The notes beneath the pieces were generated by a model. That model did no database searches. It was given only the letters and a program-made list of their open reading frames with translations, and was not told the origin of the DNA. DNA of 55,522 nt from an uncultured Ruficoccus sp. (GTDB lineage Bacteria; Verrucomicrobiota; Verrucomicrobiia; Opitutales; Cerasicoccaceae), in assembly GCA_965140785.1 (NCBI GenBank), contig OZ223498.1:1-55522 (forward strand), given 5' to 3'. The position numbers were made by a program, and so were the translations under genes. This document shows positions 6,055-16,312 of this stretch, piece by piece (position 1 is the stretch's first letter; each line of letters begins with the position of its first letter).

Positions 6055-6630
6055 TTACTTTTGCTCTTTAAGAAAGTCCCGCGTGGCGCGGCGCAGGCGT
6101 CGGATCTTGGATTCGAGCGGGCGCAGGACCTTCGGGTGCATGCGGTCGATGAAGAGCACTCCTTGCAGGTGGTCGTACTCGTGCTGGATGACGCGGGCAA
6201 AGAGCCCGTCGCAGGTGATCTCATGCGGGTTGCCCTCCACATCCTGAAAGCGCATGCGCAGGCGGGTGGGGCGGTCGACATTGCCGCGGATGCCAGGGAA
6301 GGACAGGCAGCCCTCCTCGTAGCCGGCGTCGTCACCGGCCAGTTCGAGCTTGGGGTTGACGACGGCCAGCGGCATGATCAACTCCAGCGGCGGCTGCTTA
6401 CCGTCGTAGAGAAAGTCAGGCTGAGGTTCATCCGGGTAGTCGGGCAGCTCCATGACGAAAAGCTGGATCGCCTTGCCCACCTGCTGGGCGGCCAGTCCGA
6501 TCCCCTCCGCCGCGTGCATGGTCTCGACCATGTCGTCGGCGAGCTTGCGCAGCTCGTCGTTGAACTCCGTGACCGGGGCTCCTTTTTCCTTCAGGACCGG
6601 TTCGCCGTACTGGGTGACGCGTAATACCAT
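6055..6630 (-). CDS. def: Peptide deformylase
   Basis: Motifs GIGLAAQQ, EGCLS and QHEYDHLQG. Start at MVLRVTQYGEP. Confidence 0.95.
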   Translation of the reverse strand: MVLRVTQYGEPVLKEKGAPVTEFNDELRKLADDMVETMHAAEGIGLAAQQVGKAIQLFVMELPDYPDEPQPDFLYDGKQPPLELIMPLAVVNPKLELAGDDAGYEEGCLSFPGIRGNVDRPTRLRMRFQDVEGNPHEITCDGLFARVIQHEYDHLQGVLFIDRMHPKVLRPLESKIRRLRRATRDFLKEQK

Positions 6631-6823
6631 GGAACCGTCACTAAAACGCCCTCTGCCCTCAATGGAAACCCGAAAATGCAACAGGACCGTGTCCTGCACC
6701 TGTGAAGCTGCGTTTCACTGAGGGGGCCTTGCCCCCTGCGCCGCCGGAAAGGCGGCTACCCCGGAACAACACAACGGGTATTTGTACTGTGAATCACGAG
6801 CAGTTGTTGTTCTATTGCCGGAT

Positions 6824-9227: not shown

Positions 9228-10172
9228 TCAGTGAGAGTTACGGGTGGAAGGAGCGGGCGCGGTCGCCTCGCCGGTATCGGTGGGGGCGTTAGTCCCGGAG
9301 CTGACGTCCTCGCCGCTTGGGCCGAAGAGGCTTTCCCGGTCGCCCTGGGCGGCGGTAGCAGACGAATGGACTTGAGGGGCCCGGGACGCTGAAAGCGGGG
9401 ACTGGACGTAGCTGTCGTAGCGGCCTTTTTCAATCTGAGAAATCAAGGCCGCATAGGTGAGGGGCATGACAATGCAGCCGCGCATGGTGGCAAAGGTGTC
9501 TGTTGTGTTCTGGACCGAGTCTTTCAGCATCTGGTAGCGCACGGGATCGAGGGTGTAAAAGCCGACCAGCGCATAGGCTCGCTGGGCAGGCGTCCCGTTC
9601 GCGGCCCACCGGTCGAAGCCGGCCAGTGGGGCGTCGGAGGTATAAATTTCGCGGAATTGAAGCTCACCGTTTGAGGTTTGGCCTCCGATGCCGATCCCGC
9701 CGAAAGCGAAGACATCGATAATATCCTCGGGGAAGTGCTTCGCCCGCGCGGCTTCGGGCAGGAGGGGCTTGACCACGGAGTCGTATTTGCCGTCCTCGAT
9801 GCTTTCGAACAACTGCTCATGGTTCATCGAGCCGACGAGGCAACCGCTCATGGTGGGGACTTGCAGGTGGCCCGCGGCGAAGTCCTTCTTCATCGCTGCG
9901 TAGCGGTCAGCGTCGAGATAGTAGAAGGCGACCATGGCGTAGGCTTTGCCGACGCTGCCGCCCTTCTCGGCCCACTCGGCGAAGCCGTCCGCCGGGTCGT
10001 CGGTGGCGAATATCTCCCGGAACTTCAACTCGCCCGGCGAGGTCGCCCCGGCGAAGCCCACGCCGCCGAAGGCGAACATGCCCGGCTGGCCTCCCTCGAT
10101 GCCGACGGCCGTCCCTGCCGCTGTCAGCAGCAGGCAGAAGGAGAGGAGAAAACGCTTGGGTAGCGGTGGCAT
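9228..10172 (-). CDS. Secreted hypothetical protein with two tandem copies of an uncharacterised ~115-aa domain
   Basis: Signal peptide; repeats FAFGGVGFAGATSPGELKFREI...TMSGC...IEDGKYDS and FAFGGIGIGGQTSNGELQFREI...TMRGC...IEKGRYDS. Confidence 0.8.
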   Translation of the reverse strand: MPPLPKRFLLSFCLLLTAAGTAVGIEGGQPGMFAFGGVGFAGATSPGELKFREIFATDDPADGFAEWAEKGGSVGKAYAMVAFYYLDADRYAAMKKDFAAGHLQVPTMSGCLVGSMNHEQLFESIEDGKYDSVVKPLLPEAARAKHFPEDIIDVFAFGGIGIGGQTSNGELQFREIYTSDAPLAGFDRWAANGTPAQRAYALVGFYTLDPVRYQMLKDSVQNTTDTFATMRGCIVMPLTYAALISQIEKGRYDSYVQSPLSASRAPQVHSSATAAQGDRESLFGPSGEDVSSGTNAPTDTGEATAPAPSTRNSH

Positions 10173-11727: not shown

Positions 11728-13398
11728 ATGAAAATCCTGGCCTTCGTCTCGCTCATTCTCGCCCTGCTGCTGGCGCTGGCGGGGTTGGTGGTGCCGGTGC
11801 AGTTCGGCTCGGTTTCGGCGGTGTGGCTGGAAGCGTCCGGGCGGGCTGCCGCCGGGCAGACGCTGGAGGACGAGGCGCGGGCCTACCTCGACCTCGGCAA
11901 GACCGGACCGGCCCAGGTGCTGATGGAGGCCGACCGGCAGGCGCGGGAGCTGAACGCCCTGCCGCCGCGGGAGTCGGACCTGCCCGCCGAGATCGCCGCC
12001 TACCGCGAGGAGCATCCGCAACTGGCCTACGTGGGCGGGCCGGACCCGTTTTTCGAGCAATTTTTAAAGCTGATTAAAACTCCCGAGGAGCCGGAGGGTC
12101 CGGTCACGGTCAACGCCCTGCTCATCCCCGGGCGCAACCGGGCCGAGCTGCTGGGCTTTTTGGAAAACTCCAGCAACGGCACCGTCCTCAAGCTGCTCGA
12201 GACACGCGGGCTGACCACGGTGACGCGCTTCATGCCGGTCTCGGCCCCCGCCGGGGCTCCGCTCGACAGCGCCATCCTGACCGCGGCCCTGCTGATTCAG
12301 GGGGAGGACTTTACGCCGGAGACGGTGCGCGCCGTCCGCGGCCTGGCCACCGGATCGCTGGCGGGTAACGGCCCCGCCGTGGACAAGCTGGAGGCCTTTT
12401 ACCTCTCCGTGCTCGGCTCGGCCGGGCGCATGGACTGGGTCACGCTGGCCGAGTGGACCACCCACGCCGGTTCCTGGACCGACCTGGTGGCCCTGACCAC
12501 GCTTTTACGTCAAAACACCGGCCACCTGCCGCTCATTTACGCGGCGGTGCTGCTCTCGGACGACCCGCGTTCTGTGATCGATTACCTGGGCGAGCCGGAC
12601 GAAGCCACCTGGCGCGACCTCGGGCTGGCACTGGCCAATGGCAAGCCCGCCCTCGACGCCGTGCTGGAGTCGGGGCGACCTGTTTACCACCCGCCGGCCT
12701 GGCTGGCCCCGCTGATGGAGCGCATCCCGCCCGACGCGGTTGACCTGGCCTGTAGCTACCCCGCCGCCGCCCTCGCACTCAAGCTCGCGCTGTTTTTCCT
12801 CGCCGGGTTTTTCCTGGCCATGTGCCTGAAGCGCCTGCTGGCCGGACAGGCCATGCGTGAAGCCCGCCGCCGGGGGCTGCTCTCGGTGCTGGTGGACGTG
12901 GGCCTGGGGGGCATGCTCGTGCTCATCCTCGTGCTCGTCTCCGAGCCGAACCTGATGGCCCAGCCGGTGTCCGAACCGGGCAAGAACTTTTTGGAGTTTG
13001 AATTCACCAATCCCGTCGACATTATCAACGAACAAGCCATGGATATCGCACAACTCGACCAGATCACCCTGCTGGTGCTGCTGATTTTCTTCGTCCTGCA
13101 ACTGCTCATCTACTCGGTCTGCCTGATCAAGCTGGCCCAGGTGCGCAGCTCGCCCGTGCCCGCCGCGATGAAGCTCAAGCTGCTCGAAAACGAGGAAAAC
13201 CTCTTCGACACCGGGCTCTATGTCGGCCTGACCGGGACCATCGTCTCCCTGCTCATGCTGGCCATGGGCATCGTGCAGGCCAGCCTCGTGGCCGCCTACG
13301 CCTCGACCCTGTTCGGGATCATCTTCGTGGCCATGCTGAAGATATTCAACGTCCGCCCCCTGCGCCGCAAACTCATCCTCGAAGCCGGCCTGCGCTGA
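11728..13398 (+). CDS. Membrane protein with C-terminal MotA/TolQ/ExbB-like ion-channel module and large N-terminal extracytoplasmic domain
   Basis: Last three TM segments carry GLYVGLTGTIVSL and AAYASTLFG, matching the GLxGT and A..xTxxG helices of MotA/ExbB/TolQ. Confidence 0.65.
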   Translation: MKILAFVSLILALLLALAGLVVPVQFGSVSAVWLEASGRAAAGQTLEDEARAYLDLGKTGPAQVLMEADRQARELNALPPRESDLPAEIAAYREEHPQLAYVGGPDPFFEQFLKLIKTPEEPEGPVTVNALLIPGRNRAELLGFLENSSNGTVLKLLETRGLTTVTRFMPVSAPAGAPLDSAILTAALLIQGEDFTPETVRAVRGLATGSLAGNGPAVDKLEAFYLSVLGSAGRMDWVTLAEWTTHAGSWTDLVALTTLLRQNTGHLPLIYAAVLLSDDPRSVIDYLGEPDEATWRDLGLALANGKPALDAVLESGRPVYHPPAWLAPLMERIPPDAVDLACSYPAAALALKLALFFLAGFFLAMCLKRLLAGQAMREARRRGLLSVLVDVGLGGMLVLILVLVSEPNLMAQPVSEPGKNFLEFEFTNPVDIINEQAMDIAQLDQITLLVLLIFFVLQLLIYSVCLIKLAQVRSSPVPAAMKLKLLENEENLFDTGLYVGLTGTIVSLLMLAMGIVQASLVAAYASTLFGIIFVAMLKIFNVRPLRRKLILEAGLR

Positions 13399-13649
13399 GG
13401 GTGGGGAGAGTTTTTCAGGTCACCAAGAGCACCAAGGAGACACGAAGTCCACGAAGGGGAGTCGGGAGAGGCTTTTAGGTGTTTCGCTGCGTACACGGTG
13501 TCCTCCGTGTGAGTAAAACGACTCGCTCGCAGGGGCGTGAAGTCAGCCCGTCCGAGCAAGTGGCAAACGTTGCGTTGATTGTGATATTTATCAGGGTGAC
13601 TGTTTAAGAAAAACGAGCACCATCGCTCCCCATCTCAACCGCCCCGCCG

Positions 13650-14789
13650 ATGACTACCCCCGCCCGCCGTCTCCCCCTGCCAACCGATAAACGCCTCTGG
13701 GCCACCCTGGCCCTGCTCGCGGTGCCGCTGATCGCGGAGGCGAATGCCGGGACTCCGCTCATGTGGATGGCGATGGTGCATCTGATGTTTGGAAATGCCC
13801 TCATCGGGTTACTTGAAGGGTTACTGATCGCATTCGTCTTCCAGGCTTCGAAAGGGAGGGCGATATTGCTGATGATTGTGGCCAATTATCTTTCGGCCTG
13901 GCTGGGACTCGTGTTTTTCCTTCCCCATTTGGGCGAATTGGCGCACCCCACGCTTGCGAGCGCCAAGTTGTGGATGGCTATCTTTTTCCTGCTGGCGTAC
14001 CTATTCACGCTCGTTGTTGAACTCCCATTTGTGCTTTTTGCTCTGGGTAAGGGAAAGCGCACTTTCAAACGGGTATTTATGGCCTCTTTGTTGGTTAACT
14101 CGGTCAGTTACGCCCTCCTTATTCTGATCTACGCTTTGCCGAGCGGTACAAGTCTGGTCACCGGTCTTGAACTGGTTTCGGCCAATCAAATGGACGCTCC
14201 TAAGGGCTATCTCGTCTATTACCTGTCTGATGATGACAGGTCTGTCTGTCGCATTGATCTCACTGGTACAAAAGGGGAGCCTGTTACGACGCTAGAAAGT
14301 ATGGAGGAGCCGGACAGCATGACTGGTGTCGAAAGAGAGGATGGTTCGTTGGATATCGTCTTGAATGAGAGGAGAAACACGGACAATGCCGGGCAAGTGG
14401 TTCTTCGGGGCATTGAGGAAGCTTCCGGACCTGAGGGTAAGTCTTCTTCGACTCGTGTGGCTTTTCATCCTTGGTTTGGCTCTGGCGAGGTTGATGATTG
14501 GGAGTATGATTCCGGCTTTTGGCCCATTGAGGGCGTATCCGGTAGAAATGATAAAACGGGGGAGGGATTTCACTATGCTTTCGAGACGCCTTTTTTTCAG
14601 TGGAGCATTCGTAGTGTGACCGTGATCGACGATGGGTTCTTGGTTTTTGGCCTGGAAGGTGCAGGGGGCAACGAGATCTGCCTCCTCGATCCGGCGTCGA
14701 AGAAGATAGCAGTGCTGGCGCCGGGGCGCTTCCCGGTGGTGGCAAGAACTGTTTCCGGGGTTGAACAAGTGGACGATTCCGGACACTAA
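13650..14789 (+). CDS. Hypothetical membrane protein (about 5 TM helices plus beta-rich C-terminal domain), visibly lower GC than neighbours
   Basis: 379-aa ORF, hydrophobic N-half, AT-richer codons after ~13790. Stop lies 14 nt before the next start. Confidence 0.7.
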   Translation: MTTPARRLPLPTDKRLWATLALLAVPLIAEANAGTPLMWMAMVHLMFGNALIGLLEGLLIAFVFQASKGRAILLMIVANYLSAWLGLVFFLPHLGELAHPTLASAKLWMAIFFLLAYLFTLVVELPFVLFALGKGKRTFKRVFMASLLVNSVSYALLILIYALPSGTSLVTGLELVSANQMDAPKGYLVYYLSDDDRSVCRIDLTGTKGEPVTTLESMEEPDSMTGVEREDGSLDIVLNERRNTDNAGQVVLRGIEEASGPEGKSSSTRVAFHPWFGSGEVDDWEYDSGFWPIEGVSGRNDKTGEGFHYAFETPFFQWSIRSVTVIDDGFLVFGLEGAGGNEICLLDPASKKIAVLAPGRFPVVARTVSGVEQVDDSGH

Positions 14790-14803
14790 TAGGTTTTTCG
14801 ACC

Positions 14804-16312
14804 ATGAACCGTTCCCTGCTGTTGGTGATTTGTGACTTCCTGCTGCTGAGCATGCTCGCGCTGGCGAAGTTCGACGAACCCGAGGAGGTGCAGCAGGAGC
14901 AGGTGACCGAGGCCGTCCAGCACGACACGCTGGCCGACCAGGATTTGATCGAGGTCCTGCGTATGTCGCTGGAGAGCGAGCGCGACGACCGCGTCGAGCT
15001 GGCCTCCGACCTGGAGCAGACGAAGAAGGAACTCGACGAGCGCGAAAAGGCCCTGGCCCAGAAGGAGGCCAGCCTCGACAAAACTCAGCAGAACCTGAAC
15101 CAGACCCAGCGGCGGGCGAAGGAGCTGGAGGCCGAGCGGGCCAAGCTCTCTGAGGAGGCCGCCCGGCTCGAAGAGGAGCGGAAACTTTTCGCCCAGCAGT
15201 TCGACGAGGCGCAGGAGCGGCTTAAGCAGGCCGAGGCCGACCGCGTCGAGTTGGCCAAGAACCTCGGTTCGCTCAAGGAGGACTCCGCCTCCTCCAAGGA
15301 AAAGCTCCGCCACCTTCAGCAGCAGGTCCAGCAGCAGGAAGAGGCCCTCGCCGCCGCCCAGGCCGAGAAGGACCGCTTGGCTGAGCAGGCTCAGGCCGCC
15401 GAGTCCGCCCGCCAGCAGCTTTCCACCCGGCTGGAGGTCGCCCAGGCCCAGTCGCAGGTCTTGCAGGAGTCGCTGGAGACGGCCCGCGCGGACGTGGCGG
15501 TGACCCGGCAGGAGAAGGACGTCGTGATGAAGCACGCCGACAAGCTGGCCGAGGGCGTGAGCGTGCTGGCCGAGTCCACCGACCGCATCAGCCAGGAGGT
15601 TAAAAAGAGCAACCCCCTCTCGCTCAACACGATCTACCAGGACTTTTTAAAGAACCGCGTCACCGTGCGTTTCTCGACCGAGGAGAACGCCCTCATCGGC
15701 ACCTCGAAGGAGAATTACACGGTGGAGACGGCCCTGATCGCGGACGGCGAACGGGCCTACGCGGTGCTGCACCTCGACGACACGCCCTTCAAACTCAGCA
15801 GTGCCGGACGCGGGCTGCTTAGCGCCGAGGGCCGGATCATGATCGGCGGCAAGGCCTACCGCTTCAAGCGGCTCTACTTCCTCGCCTCCGATCCGCGGCT
15901 GGCCGCCGTCCCCCTGCCCGCCAGCGTGGCCGAGCAGAACGGTATCAAAACCTTTACGCTGGCGGACGAGCCGTTGCGCTTCCCCGAGGCCGTGCTGATC
16001 GACAGCGGCAACGGCGGCTACGGCGAGGTGCCCTTCAAGCTCGACCCGCAGGACCAGCACTACCTGGCCATGCAGACGGATCTCTTTAACCGCATTTTCG
16101 GGGACTTCTCACCCGGCACCGGCGATGTGGTCTTCTCCAAGACCGGCGACTGGGTCGGGCTCATGGTCAGCTCCGACACCGCGCCCTTGATCGAGAACCT
16201 CTCCGTCAACGGCAGCGTTGACCTGGGTGAGGCATTCAACGCCGAGACCACCCGGCGCACCCTCTCCGCCCGGGCCTCCGCTCTGGCGCGACTCCCCTCC
16301 AGCGTGCGGTAG
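14804..16312 (+). CDS. Single-pass protein with MotB/ExbD-like Asp-containing TM helix, long coiled coil and beta-rich C-terminal domain
   Basis: MNRSLLLVICDFLLLSMLALAKF (Asp11, codon 14834-14836). E/Q/K/A-rich heptad region over about aa 45-270. Confidence 0.65.
   Translation: MNRSLLLVICDFLLLSMLALAKFDEPEEVQQEQVTEAVQHDTLADQDLIEVLRMSLESERDDRVELASDLEQTKKELDEREKALAQKEASLDKTQQNLNQTQRRAKELEAERAKLSEEAARLEEERKLFAQQFDEAQERLKQAEADRVELAKNLGSLKEDSASSKEKLRHLQQQVQQQEEALAAAQAEKDRLAEQAQAAESARQQLSTRLEVAQAQSQVLQESLETARADVAVTRQEKDVVMKHADKLAEGVSVLAESTDRISQEVKKSNPLSLNTIYQDFLKNRVTVRFSTEENALIGTSKENYTVETALIADGERAYAVLHLDDTPFKLSSAGRGLLSAEGRIMIGGKAYRFKRLYFLASDPRLAAVPLPASVAEQNGIKTFTLADEPLRFPEAVLIDSGNGGYGEVPFKLDPQDQHYLAMQTDLFNRIFGDFSPGTGDVVFSKTGDWVGLMVSSDTAPLIENLSVNGSVDLGEAFNAETTRRTLSARASALARLPSSVR

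Follow-up and report, generated by a model that had tools for sequence, protein, structure and literature searches.

To our knowledge, stator-type ion motors are the only known means by which double-membraned bacteria deliver energy to the periplasm or the outer membrane, and each newly recognized motor (Ton, Tol, GldLM, and Zorya among them) has opened a field. In the A subunits of the MotA/ExbB/TolQ family, conserved Thr/Ser residues of the last two membrane helices face an Asp of the partner subunit. Here we describe a pair of genes, A and B, from an uncultured Ruficoccus sp. of the Opitutales, found in a window of 55,522 nt (contig OZ223498.1 of assembly GCA_965140785.1, positions 1–55,522), the whole stretch of DNA that was analysed. 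Gene A (11728–13398, + strand) is an ORF for a polytopic inner-membrane protein of 556 amino acids (aa), the candidate outer, “A-type” subunit; gene B (14804–16312, + strand) is an ORF for a bitopic protein of 502 aa, the candidate inner, “B-type” subunit. The most fitting description of the pair is that of a candidate envelope motor, driven by ions and forming a lineage of its own, and we hold with about even confidence that it is one, a motor of separate descent that would pass force along a periplasmic coiled-coil stalk to a gripping head made from a dead protease. It is a core, vertically inherited locus of several hundred species, with neither annotation nor a cytoplasmic domain, and it combines a built-in stalk, predicted to span the periplasm, with a head that is without precedent, a protease fold minus its serine.

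The locus resembles in layout the proton-driven ExbB–ExbD(–TonB) and TolQ–TolR(–TolA) systems (PF01618/PF02472): the gene order, A then B, is the same; the three final helices of A have the topology of TM1–3 of ExbB; A shares with ExbB and TolQ two helix motifs, one like G-L-x-G-T-V in the last helix but one and one of Ser/Thr in the final helix; B, like ExbD and TolR, starts with a single helix whose invariant Asp is close to the cytoplasmic face; and, as in TolA, output to the periplasm would run over a long helical stalk. Unlike them, A and B have no cytoplasmic domain and no significant sequence or profile similarity to either system, stalk and head lie within B rather than in a third protein (TonB or TolA), and the HtrA-like head corresponds neither to the ExbD/TolR domain nor to the C-terminal domain of TonB. 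With MotA–MotB and PomA–PomB the pair shares the four-helix topology of MotA, both ends inside (seen in the short form of A described below), and a MotB-type Asp in B, whereas the torque-generating cytoplasmic domain of MotA is absent from A, the OmpA-like peptidoglycan-binding domain of MotB is absent from B, and this genome has separate canonical PF01618 genes besides A. As in ZorA–ZorB, a long coiled coil is joined to the putative motor; in Zorya, however, the coiled-coil tail is on ZorA and cytoplasmic, while here it is on B and predicted to be periplasmic, and the ZorC/D genes of Zorya are missing from what is here a core-genome locus. The closest functional analogy is GldL–GldM/PorL–PorM of gliding and type IX secretion: PMC9389320 describes GldLM as having a MotAB-like architecture without sequence similarity, with an 18-nm periplasmic shaft that carries movement outward, and the inner subunit GldM/PorM as a membrane helix followed by a long periplasmic shaft, as in B. 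GldL differs from A in having two membrane helices and a cytoplasmic tail, and the shaft of GldM consists of folded domains whereas the stalk of B is a coiled coil. The charged pair of GldLM, an Arg on GldM with a Glu on GldL, is likewise unlike the lone Asp of B. A full-text literature search on stator-type motors, covering passages of PMC12505986 and PMC9389320, found no description of the A/B family.

The layout of A was read from hydropathy and the positive-inside rule (charge distribution) and from an AlphaFold2 model (mean predicted local distance difference test score, pLDDT, 85; predicted template modelling score 0.73), which concur on the order of its parts and place the N-terminus inside. 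A membrane anchor (aa 3–22, 11734–11793; hydropathy 2.98, model helix 2–21) leads to an all-helical soluble domain (aa ~25–344, 11800–12759), predicted to be periplasmic from the model and from its acidic charge balance (24 K + R versus 42 D + E), with model blocks mostly at pLDDT > 90. Next come an extra hairpin of two membrane helices (aa 345–405, 12760–12942; model helices 345–371 and 373–405) with a cytoplasmic, Arg-rich turn, a poorly modelled outside loop (413–443, pLDDT < 50), and the conserved core module (aa 445–556, 13060–13395), all on the + strand. Within the core, helix 445–474, bearing Q458 and Y462, is followed by a 15-residue cytoplasmic helix (479–493, containing LENEENLFD), helix 495–512 with GLTGT, and helix 519–555 with AYAST, then a basic tail inside. 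Hydropathy, charge, and model give the core an out–in, in–out, out–in topology with the C-terminus inside; it forms a three-helix bundle in the model, and its cytoplasmic parts comprise a 26-residue loop, which holds the one 15-residue helix, and a 16-residue tail. A first-pass annotation made from the sequence alone had proposed just this series of anchor, ~320-aa soluble domain, two extra helices, and three final ones, and the coordinates that it gave for GLTGT (G500–T504, 13225–13239) in the penultimate helix and STLFG (S526–G530, 13303–13317) in the last are exact. It had also described B as one Asp-bearing membrane helix, a coiled coil, and a globular head, with which hydropathy, library matches, and the structural model all agree. 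Its placement of B downstream of A holds, but not directly so: an ORF that it did not mention, ORF M, lies between them.

The core is the only part of the 556-aa protein that is conserved phylum-wide and matched outside the order. Ten columns are invariant in the phylum-wide alignment, A3 (36/36: Q458, D494, L497, Y498, G500, A523, Y524, S526, G530, and I531), mostly polar, aromatic, or Gly positions, and the motifs GLxGT and AYxST are conserved, including T504 (Ser in 2/36) and S526/T527 (T527 being nearly invariant), as is a K/R at residue 538. Being conserved, these features of A and B are more than chance. The soluble domain is present in Opitutales and missing from the short forms, and phylum-level matches outside the order skip it. 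In one family (f23; genomes G023, G056, G080, and G101), gene A encodes 770–810 aa and its profile match is broken into two by additional sequence that separates the N-terminal part from the remainder, a further elaboration of the periplasmic part. Gene A matches no Pfam, NCBIfam, or PADLOC family, and Foldseek with the whole A model returned nothing at E ≤ 0.001. An ESM Atlas search with the core gave only unnamed clusters, from Verrucomicrobiota and Lentisphaerota, and a search for shorter core homologues yielded chiefly fragmentary genes from small contigs, every one “hypothetical.”

The A family has 92 matches in a word-indexed search and 521 representative clusters at E ≤ 0.001, and the B family 281 matches; every A-family match with an organism name belongs to Verrucomicrobiota, broadly defined. 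Of 121 genomes that sample the order evenly, this one included, A is present in 62 and absent from 59, and the two genes, whose co-occurrence the first-pass annotation had put up for checking, are found together in 62/62 A-holders. B matches occur without A in four genomes, as a head-only piece in G012 and as weak coiled-coil matches (E 1e-4 to 1e-6) in G030, G046, and G120. A is directly upstream of B on the same strand in 55/62, with a gap of <450 bp in 54 of them and of 1,415 bp in the 55th, which is this genome; they lie apart in seven (G073 and G115 of this family, G028, and G043, G068, G090, and G111 of family f3). In a phylum sample of 301 genomes the A profile matches 114, 45 inside the order and 69 outside; 67 of the 69 match only the C-terminal part of the profile, from ~360–450 to 560 (from 193 in the long form of G140), and the ORFs outside the order are mostly 170–250 aa, with a few of ~590–850 aa. 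By family, the profile matches in this sample 46/48 (f52), 11/21 (f59), and 3/3 (f62) genomes, and it has no match in the listed same-class families outside the order (e.g. 0/23 in f43).

At all 17 loci fetched from other families of the phylum, a B-like gene comes straight after A, which is either short or long (17/17), the minimal A, of ~180 aa, being just the module. Their B-like genes encode 485–629 aa (one was read only as a shorter ORF), and all 16 with the N-terminus read begin M-x-x-x-x-[LM]-x-[VIC]-x-x-D. Since distant loci carry a short A and then B, the ancestral unit appears from these sequences to be a four-helix A of ~180 aa plus B, to which Opitutales added the periplasmic domain and the hairpin. 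Exact look-ups put a name to 7 of 10 queried proteins, all from Lentisphaerota or Kiritimatiellota: Victivallis vadensis, a second Victivallis sp., two Lentisphaerota isolates, Kiritimatiella glycovorans, Tichowtungia aerotolerans, and Pontiella agarivorans. Among the genomes searched, A/B was found only in one part of the PVC group, that of Opitutales, Lentisphaerota, and Kiritimatiellota. When 185,579 species genomes were scanned for a sequence pattern, 376 stretches proved to encode a relative, and the 80 of these that were kept come from Verrucomicrobiota, bar one “uncultured bacterium” and two bins labelled otherwise. The latter, labelled Yoonia sp. and Rhodospirillaceae (L057 and L072), encode an A core 65–68% identical to this one and Puniceicoccaceae-like, and these contigs are probably mis-binned.

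Gene B begins with MNRSLLLVICDFLLLSML, and by hydropathy and charge its single membrane helix (aa 4–22, 14813–14869, + strand) is preceded by three cytoplasmic residues only. Asp11 (codon 14834–14836, + strand), whose loss of conservation had been named at first pass as grounds for refutation, is invariant in all 33 aligned B homologues and in all 16 distant B proteins with the N-terminus read, and the N-terminal ~24 residues as a whole are among the best-conserved stretches of B, right across the phylum. Asp11 is ~7 residues from the cytoplasmic face, compared with ~8 for T504 and ~11 for Q458 of A, which would set it at a similar membrane depth to these two residues. The stalk (aa ~45–259, 14936–15580, + strand) has only coiled-coil-type matches in Pfam, NCBIfam, and PADLOC (SMC, Rad50, and the ZorA tail); its length differs between lineages, and the indels among aligned B homologues are confined to it. 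Matches of B to these libraries are coiled-coil noise only, Pfam finds no OmpA-like or ExbD/TolR domain in B, in line with the earlier reading, and database names of B relatives are limited to “hypothetical,” “Smc,” or “coiled-coil.”

The head of B (aa 260–502, 15581–16309, + strand) is modelled with high confidence (pLDDT 92.5) as an HtrA/DegP-like double beta-barrel plus a C-terminal helix. In Foldseek, at least 200 structures match at E ≤ 0.001, foremost Deg9, DegP, and DegQ (best match E 2.6e-6, TM-score ~0.45), and VIA-align gave Z 11–12 over 165–180 residues, with the S1C-like domain of RsgI9 at the top, then HtrA and DegP. An ESM Atlas search had pointed weakly to such a fold with Trypsin_2 clusters at 0.90, and the structural comparison later confirmed it; the kinship, at 8–15% sequence identity to the HtrA-fold matches, is invisible to Pfam and to PDB sequence searches. 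While the double beta-barrel fold is common to the head, HtrA/DegP (S1C) proteases, and the RsgI9 domain, a hydrophobic residue in the head replaces the GxSGG serine of HtrA/DegP, and B has no PDZ domain. The conserved head motif, G-D-x-V-x-x-K-x-G-x-x-x-G-x-M-V, matches in position the G-x-S-G-G...G-x-V-x-G-I of S1 proteases, a placement made by the model rather than by residue-level superposition. The motif begins G-D-[VLFIAY] in 32 of 36 sequences, S-D-L in two, S-N-I in one, and V-R-A in one, so that the residue in third place is always one of V, L, F, I, A, and Y (36/36) and never Ser (0/36); nor is any His invariant in the head in alignments of 33 and 36 sequences. Because the motif Ser is replaced throughout and no His is invariant, we read the head as a catalytically dead binding domain, as predicted from the model.

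The case for a motor is architectural, made by analogy, and from the anatomy, conservation, co-inheritance, and head fold described above we infer its ion coupling, stoichiometry, movement, and target. A and B would form an inner-membrane complex energized by an ion gradient, like MotAB, ExbBD, TolQR, and GldLM, in which several copies of the three-helix core of A ring the membrane helices of B. Asp11 of B, invariant and otherwise unpaired, would bind and release the ion, surrounded by the conserved polar residues Q458, Y462, T504, and S526/T527 of A; by analogy with GldLM, ion passage at Asp11 is proposed to drive B relative to the A ring, as a rotation or a pull. Since neither protein has a cytoplasmic domain, the movement would go outward, along the ~200-residue periplasmic coiled coil of B, which could by arithmetic span up to ~30 nm if it is one continuous coil. 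The dead HtrA-like head would hold the load by gripping a protein or peptide of the outer envelope; the former substrate groove may serve for this, with an extended peptide bound in it, and the 320-aa periplasmic domain and two membrane helices peculiar to Opitutales may anchor the ring or guide the stalk. No nucleotide-binding part is found in A or B, and because cytoplasmic domains are lacking too, the membrane gradient is the sole evident energy source and the periplasm the sole evident output direction. A bolder form of this proposal, possible though on balance doubtful, is that A/B represents a third independent lineage of ring-and-axle ion motors, beside the MotAB/ExbBD/TolQR/ZorAB superfamily and GldLM, in which the inner subunit is itself a rotating or pulling, periplasm-crossing coiled-coil shaft tipped with a dead HtrA domain that clamps an outer-envelope target, powering an outer-membrane process in polysaccharide-degrading bacteria. 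If A/B is a motor, it would show a minimal membrane part (~110 residues per A core) and a force transducer that can be fused to the B subunit, and PVC bacteria would energize an outer-envelope process by a route of their own; if it is not, an Asp invariant across a phylum in a single-pass helix still demands an explanation.

The same anatomy could instead belong to a passive envelope-spanning scaffold or tether, or to a regulatory pseudo-protease complex, in which the coil keeps the membranes apart or joins them, a partner is bound by the head, A does no more than anchor or stabilize B, and Asp11 serves helix packing. Dead S1C domains do serve as binding modules, as in RsgI9, the top VIA match of the head; the conserved K/R538 of A could pair with Asp11; A and B have no significant similarity to any motor family; and synteny with the housekeeping gene for peptide deformylase (def), found in 14/19 Opitutales loci, suggests a core envelope function. 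We nevertheless consider a passive role rather unlikely, in that a plain anchor fails to explain the conservation of the first ~24 residues of B across the phylum, the invariant acidic residue within its helix, and the conserved polar residues inside the membrane helices of A.

Sequence and fold comparisons set A beside the MotA/ExbB proteins, to which the first-pass annotation had likened it. Profile comparison with hhalign does align the A core with PF01618 colinearly over three helices, GLxGTV falling on GLLGTV and AYxST on ALiTT. Against the eight PF01618 proteins of this genome, the A1 core scored 19.7 (P 0.03), a 48-sequence core 25.7 (P 0.0028), and the A3 core 25.4 (P 0.0034); against 36 PF01618 proteins of the phylum, the A3 core scored 21.7 (P 0.011). 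These scores exceed those of the reversed (13.7–18.3, P 0.05–0.22) and column-shuffled (6–14) controls. A series of results nonetheless counts against the proposal. The scores of 21.7–25.7 are below the 27.2 (P 0.0017) of ExbB versus FtsX, an unrelated pair used as negative control; block shuffles keep the score; and scoring of profile hidden Markov models against sequences yields 4–6 bits via the single GLLGTV helix motif. Pfam PF01618 has no match to A at E ≤ 1, a genome-wide PF01618 search gave eight matches, none at the A/B locus, and PDB searches with profiles of A or its core returned no MotA, ExbB, TolQ, or ZorA chain. The large cytoplasmic domain of ExbB/MotA is absent from A, the ZorA/ExbB fold matches described below are no better than those to generic three-helix bundles, and on the side of B, HtrA-type domains are usually trimers, an odd fit with a dimeric inner subunit. 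Because block shuffles keep the score, one motif supplies the 4–6 bits, and an unrelated pair scores higher, the sequence evidence for kinship of A with MotA/ExbB is motif resemblance, nothing more.

The best PDB match of the core profile is to FtsX, at a non-significant E of 0.48, and the short form of A does share the layout of FtsX: a helix and a periplasmic loop come first, then three helices, the first and second of which are separated by a cytoplasmic helix of 15 residues. Such a layout would suit mechanotransmission of the FtsEX–EnvC kind, with A as an FtsX/MacB-type subunit docking an ATPase encoded elsewhere and B as an EnvC-like hydrolase activator; EnvC is a coiled coil with a degenerate peptidase domain, which the coil and dead head of B parallel. 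EnvC has no Asp-bearing membrane helix, however, and the comparison fares poorly on the side of A, where hhalign of the A3 core with the FtsX profile scores 15.2 (P 0.11), no Pfam FtsX match is found, the two PF02687 matches of this genome lie elsewhere, and no FtsX or MacB chain is among the top 50 VIA matches. Nor is an ATPase gene a conserved neighbour of A/B at 19 Opitutales and 17 distant loci, an ABC-F gene being present in only five, all of Lentisphaeria. An FtsX-type mechanism therefore seems quite improbable.

The VIA structural search with the A core covered 48,161 chains, of which 60 reached Z ≥ 8; what follows concerns the best 50 of these 60. Ribosome recycling factor (Z 11.3) and designed three-helix bundles (Z 10–10.7) rank at the top, and ZorAB/ExbB entries make up six of the 50, five of them labelled as ZorA or ExbB chains (Z 8.2–10.2, 111–113 residues). 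The best-scoring stator-type match is the ZorA chain 8qyh_A (Z 10.2, root-mean-square deviation 3.3, 111 residues aligned); the others are 8vvi_F (Z 9.6, 98 aligned, subunit not identified), 8qyk_A (8.5), 8qyd_A (8.3), 6ye4_A (8.3), and 8vvn_C (8.2), with ZorA represented at Z 10.2, 8.5, and 8.3 and ExbB at 8.3. For helical bundles a Z below ~13 may reflect a common arrangement only, and the modelled fold of the core is thus compatible with a stator-like arrangement and does not single one out. CorA (Z 10.4) and Mrs2 (Z 9.5) are also among the matches, and together with the invariant polar residues in the membrane helices of A they could point to a channel for ions or a small transporter, whether a pentamer like CorA or of some other form, with B as its regulator or periplasmic sensor. 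We regard this as improbable: the CorA match is one of generic long helices, and no channel is known to be built with 1:1 coupling to an Asp-bearing helix and a stalk of 200 residues. A complex prediction with four copies of A(425–556) and two of B(1–70), that is, at 4:2 rather than 5:2, gave ipSAE values of 0.11 and 0.09, which we take as speaking neither for the complex nor against it. The similarity to MotA/ExbB expected at first pass thus came close to refutation, reduced to a weak colinear profile alignment and Z values of 8.2–10.2, not above those of bundles. With these tests near refutation and the architecture intact, membership of A in the MotA/ExbB family is not supported, PF01618 giving no match and profile scores falling below the FtsX control, while working like a stator unit is, on architecture, the best reading of A/B; of the earlier ion-motor interpretation, the stator-like architecture stands and the kinship with the 5:2 ion-motor family is not supported.

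The match to ZorA also raises the prospect of a Zorya-like anti-phage defence motor, ZorA chains being the best-scoring motor-type membrane proteins in the VIA search and the PADLOC ZorA3 model matching B at E 7.6e-6. That match, however, is in the coiled-coil tail region of ZorA and on B, and PADLOC gives A no match. The surroundings argue the same way: no ZorC/D/E-like genes are near A/B, where genes for a periplasmic binding protein, a chemotaxis receptor, peptide deformylase, and an AIR-synthase-like protein are found instead, and a single stable locus by def that is present in nearly a whole family (46/48 in f52) is unlike a defence island. A/B is a stable core locus, not an island. We rejected the defence reading, one of the roles suggested at first pass, on synteny and distribution, and consider it very improbable indeed. 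The absence of TonB/TolA, flagellar, and Zorya genes noted earlier holds within ~5 kb of the locus, and the label “orphan” was apt, since the only neighbour conserved across the order is def, a housekeeping gene.

No third partner gene is common to A/B loci across the phylum (19 Opitutales and 17 distant loci), and at the 17 distant loci no gene besides A and B is common to all. In Opitutales, def is mostly divergent and immediately upstream of gene A; in the window it lies at 6055–6696 (− strand), and in this genus ~5 kb of other genes separate it from A. Seven Lentisphaeria loci (L027, L029, L030, L031, L034, L036, and L037) have a gene for a membrane Ser/Thr protein kinase of ~870 aa directly after B, and in five of the seven the next gene, two downstream of B, encodes an ABC-F ATPase. 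This arrangement is lineage-specific, none being seen in Opitutales or Kiritimatiellia loci.

ORF M (379 aa, 13650–14789, + strand), which accounts for the wide A–B gap in this genome, encodes several membrane helices and a soluble C-terminal part and matches no Pfam, NCBIfam, or PADLOC family. It was inserted recently from a foreign source, between A and B of this genome alone. Its G+C content is 0.538, against 0.666 for A and 0.657 for B, and in a base-level comparison 13399–14803 is absent from the A–B junction of two same-genus genomes (L009 and L026), with both flanks aligning. With ORF M as query, no match was found in any of four other same-genus genomes; relatives are present in 3 of 41 related genomes, this one included, a scattered distribution (39% identity for the one in G406, pieces in G001). 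Contigs from two runs gave no junction across ORF M. We considered ORF M as a third subunit and rejected it, as it is sporadic, low in G+C, and missing from same-genus A–B junctions. At the left edge of the insertion, just past the stop codon of A, lies a copy of a dispersed repeat of ~40 bp (13416–13458), which has nine further matches in the genome at 82–92% identity and is also touched by contigs of other loci.

Upstream of gene A in the window are genes for peptide deformylase, a chemotaxis receptor, and a periplasmic binding protein, and downstream of gene B genes for AIR-synthase-like, HAD hydrolase, and methyltransferase proteins and a weak UbiA match; two more ORFs around the locus belong to no family. 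The ~5-kb block between def and A in this genus consists of the chemotaxis receptor gene, a duplicated ORF, and the binding-protein gene. The duplicated ORF (314 aa, 9231–10172, − strand), which sits between the receptor and binding-protein genes and has no Pfam family, is an internal duplication of two similar halves that share the pattern FAFGG.G..G.TS.GEL.FREI...F..WA..G....AYA.V.FY.LD..RY.

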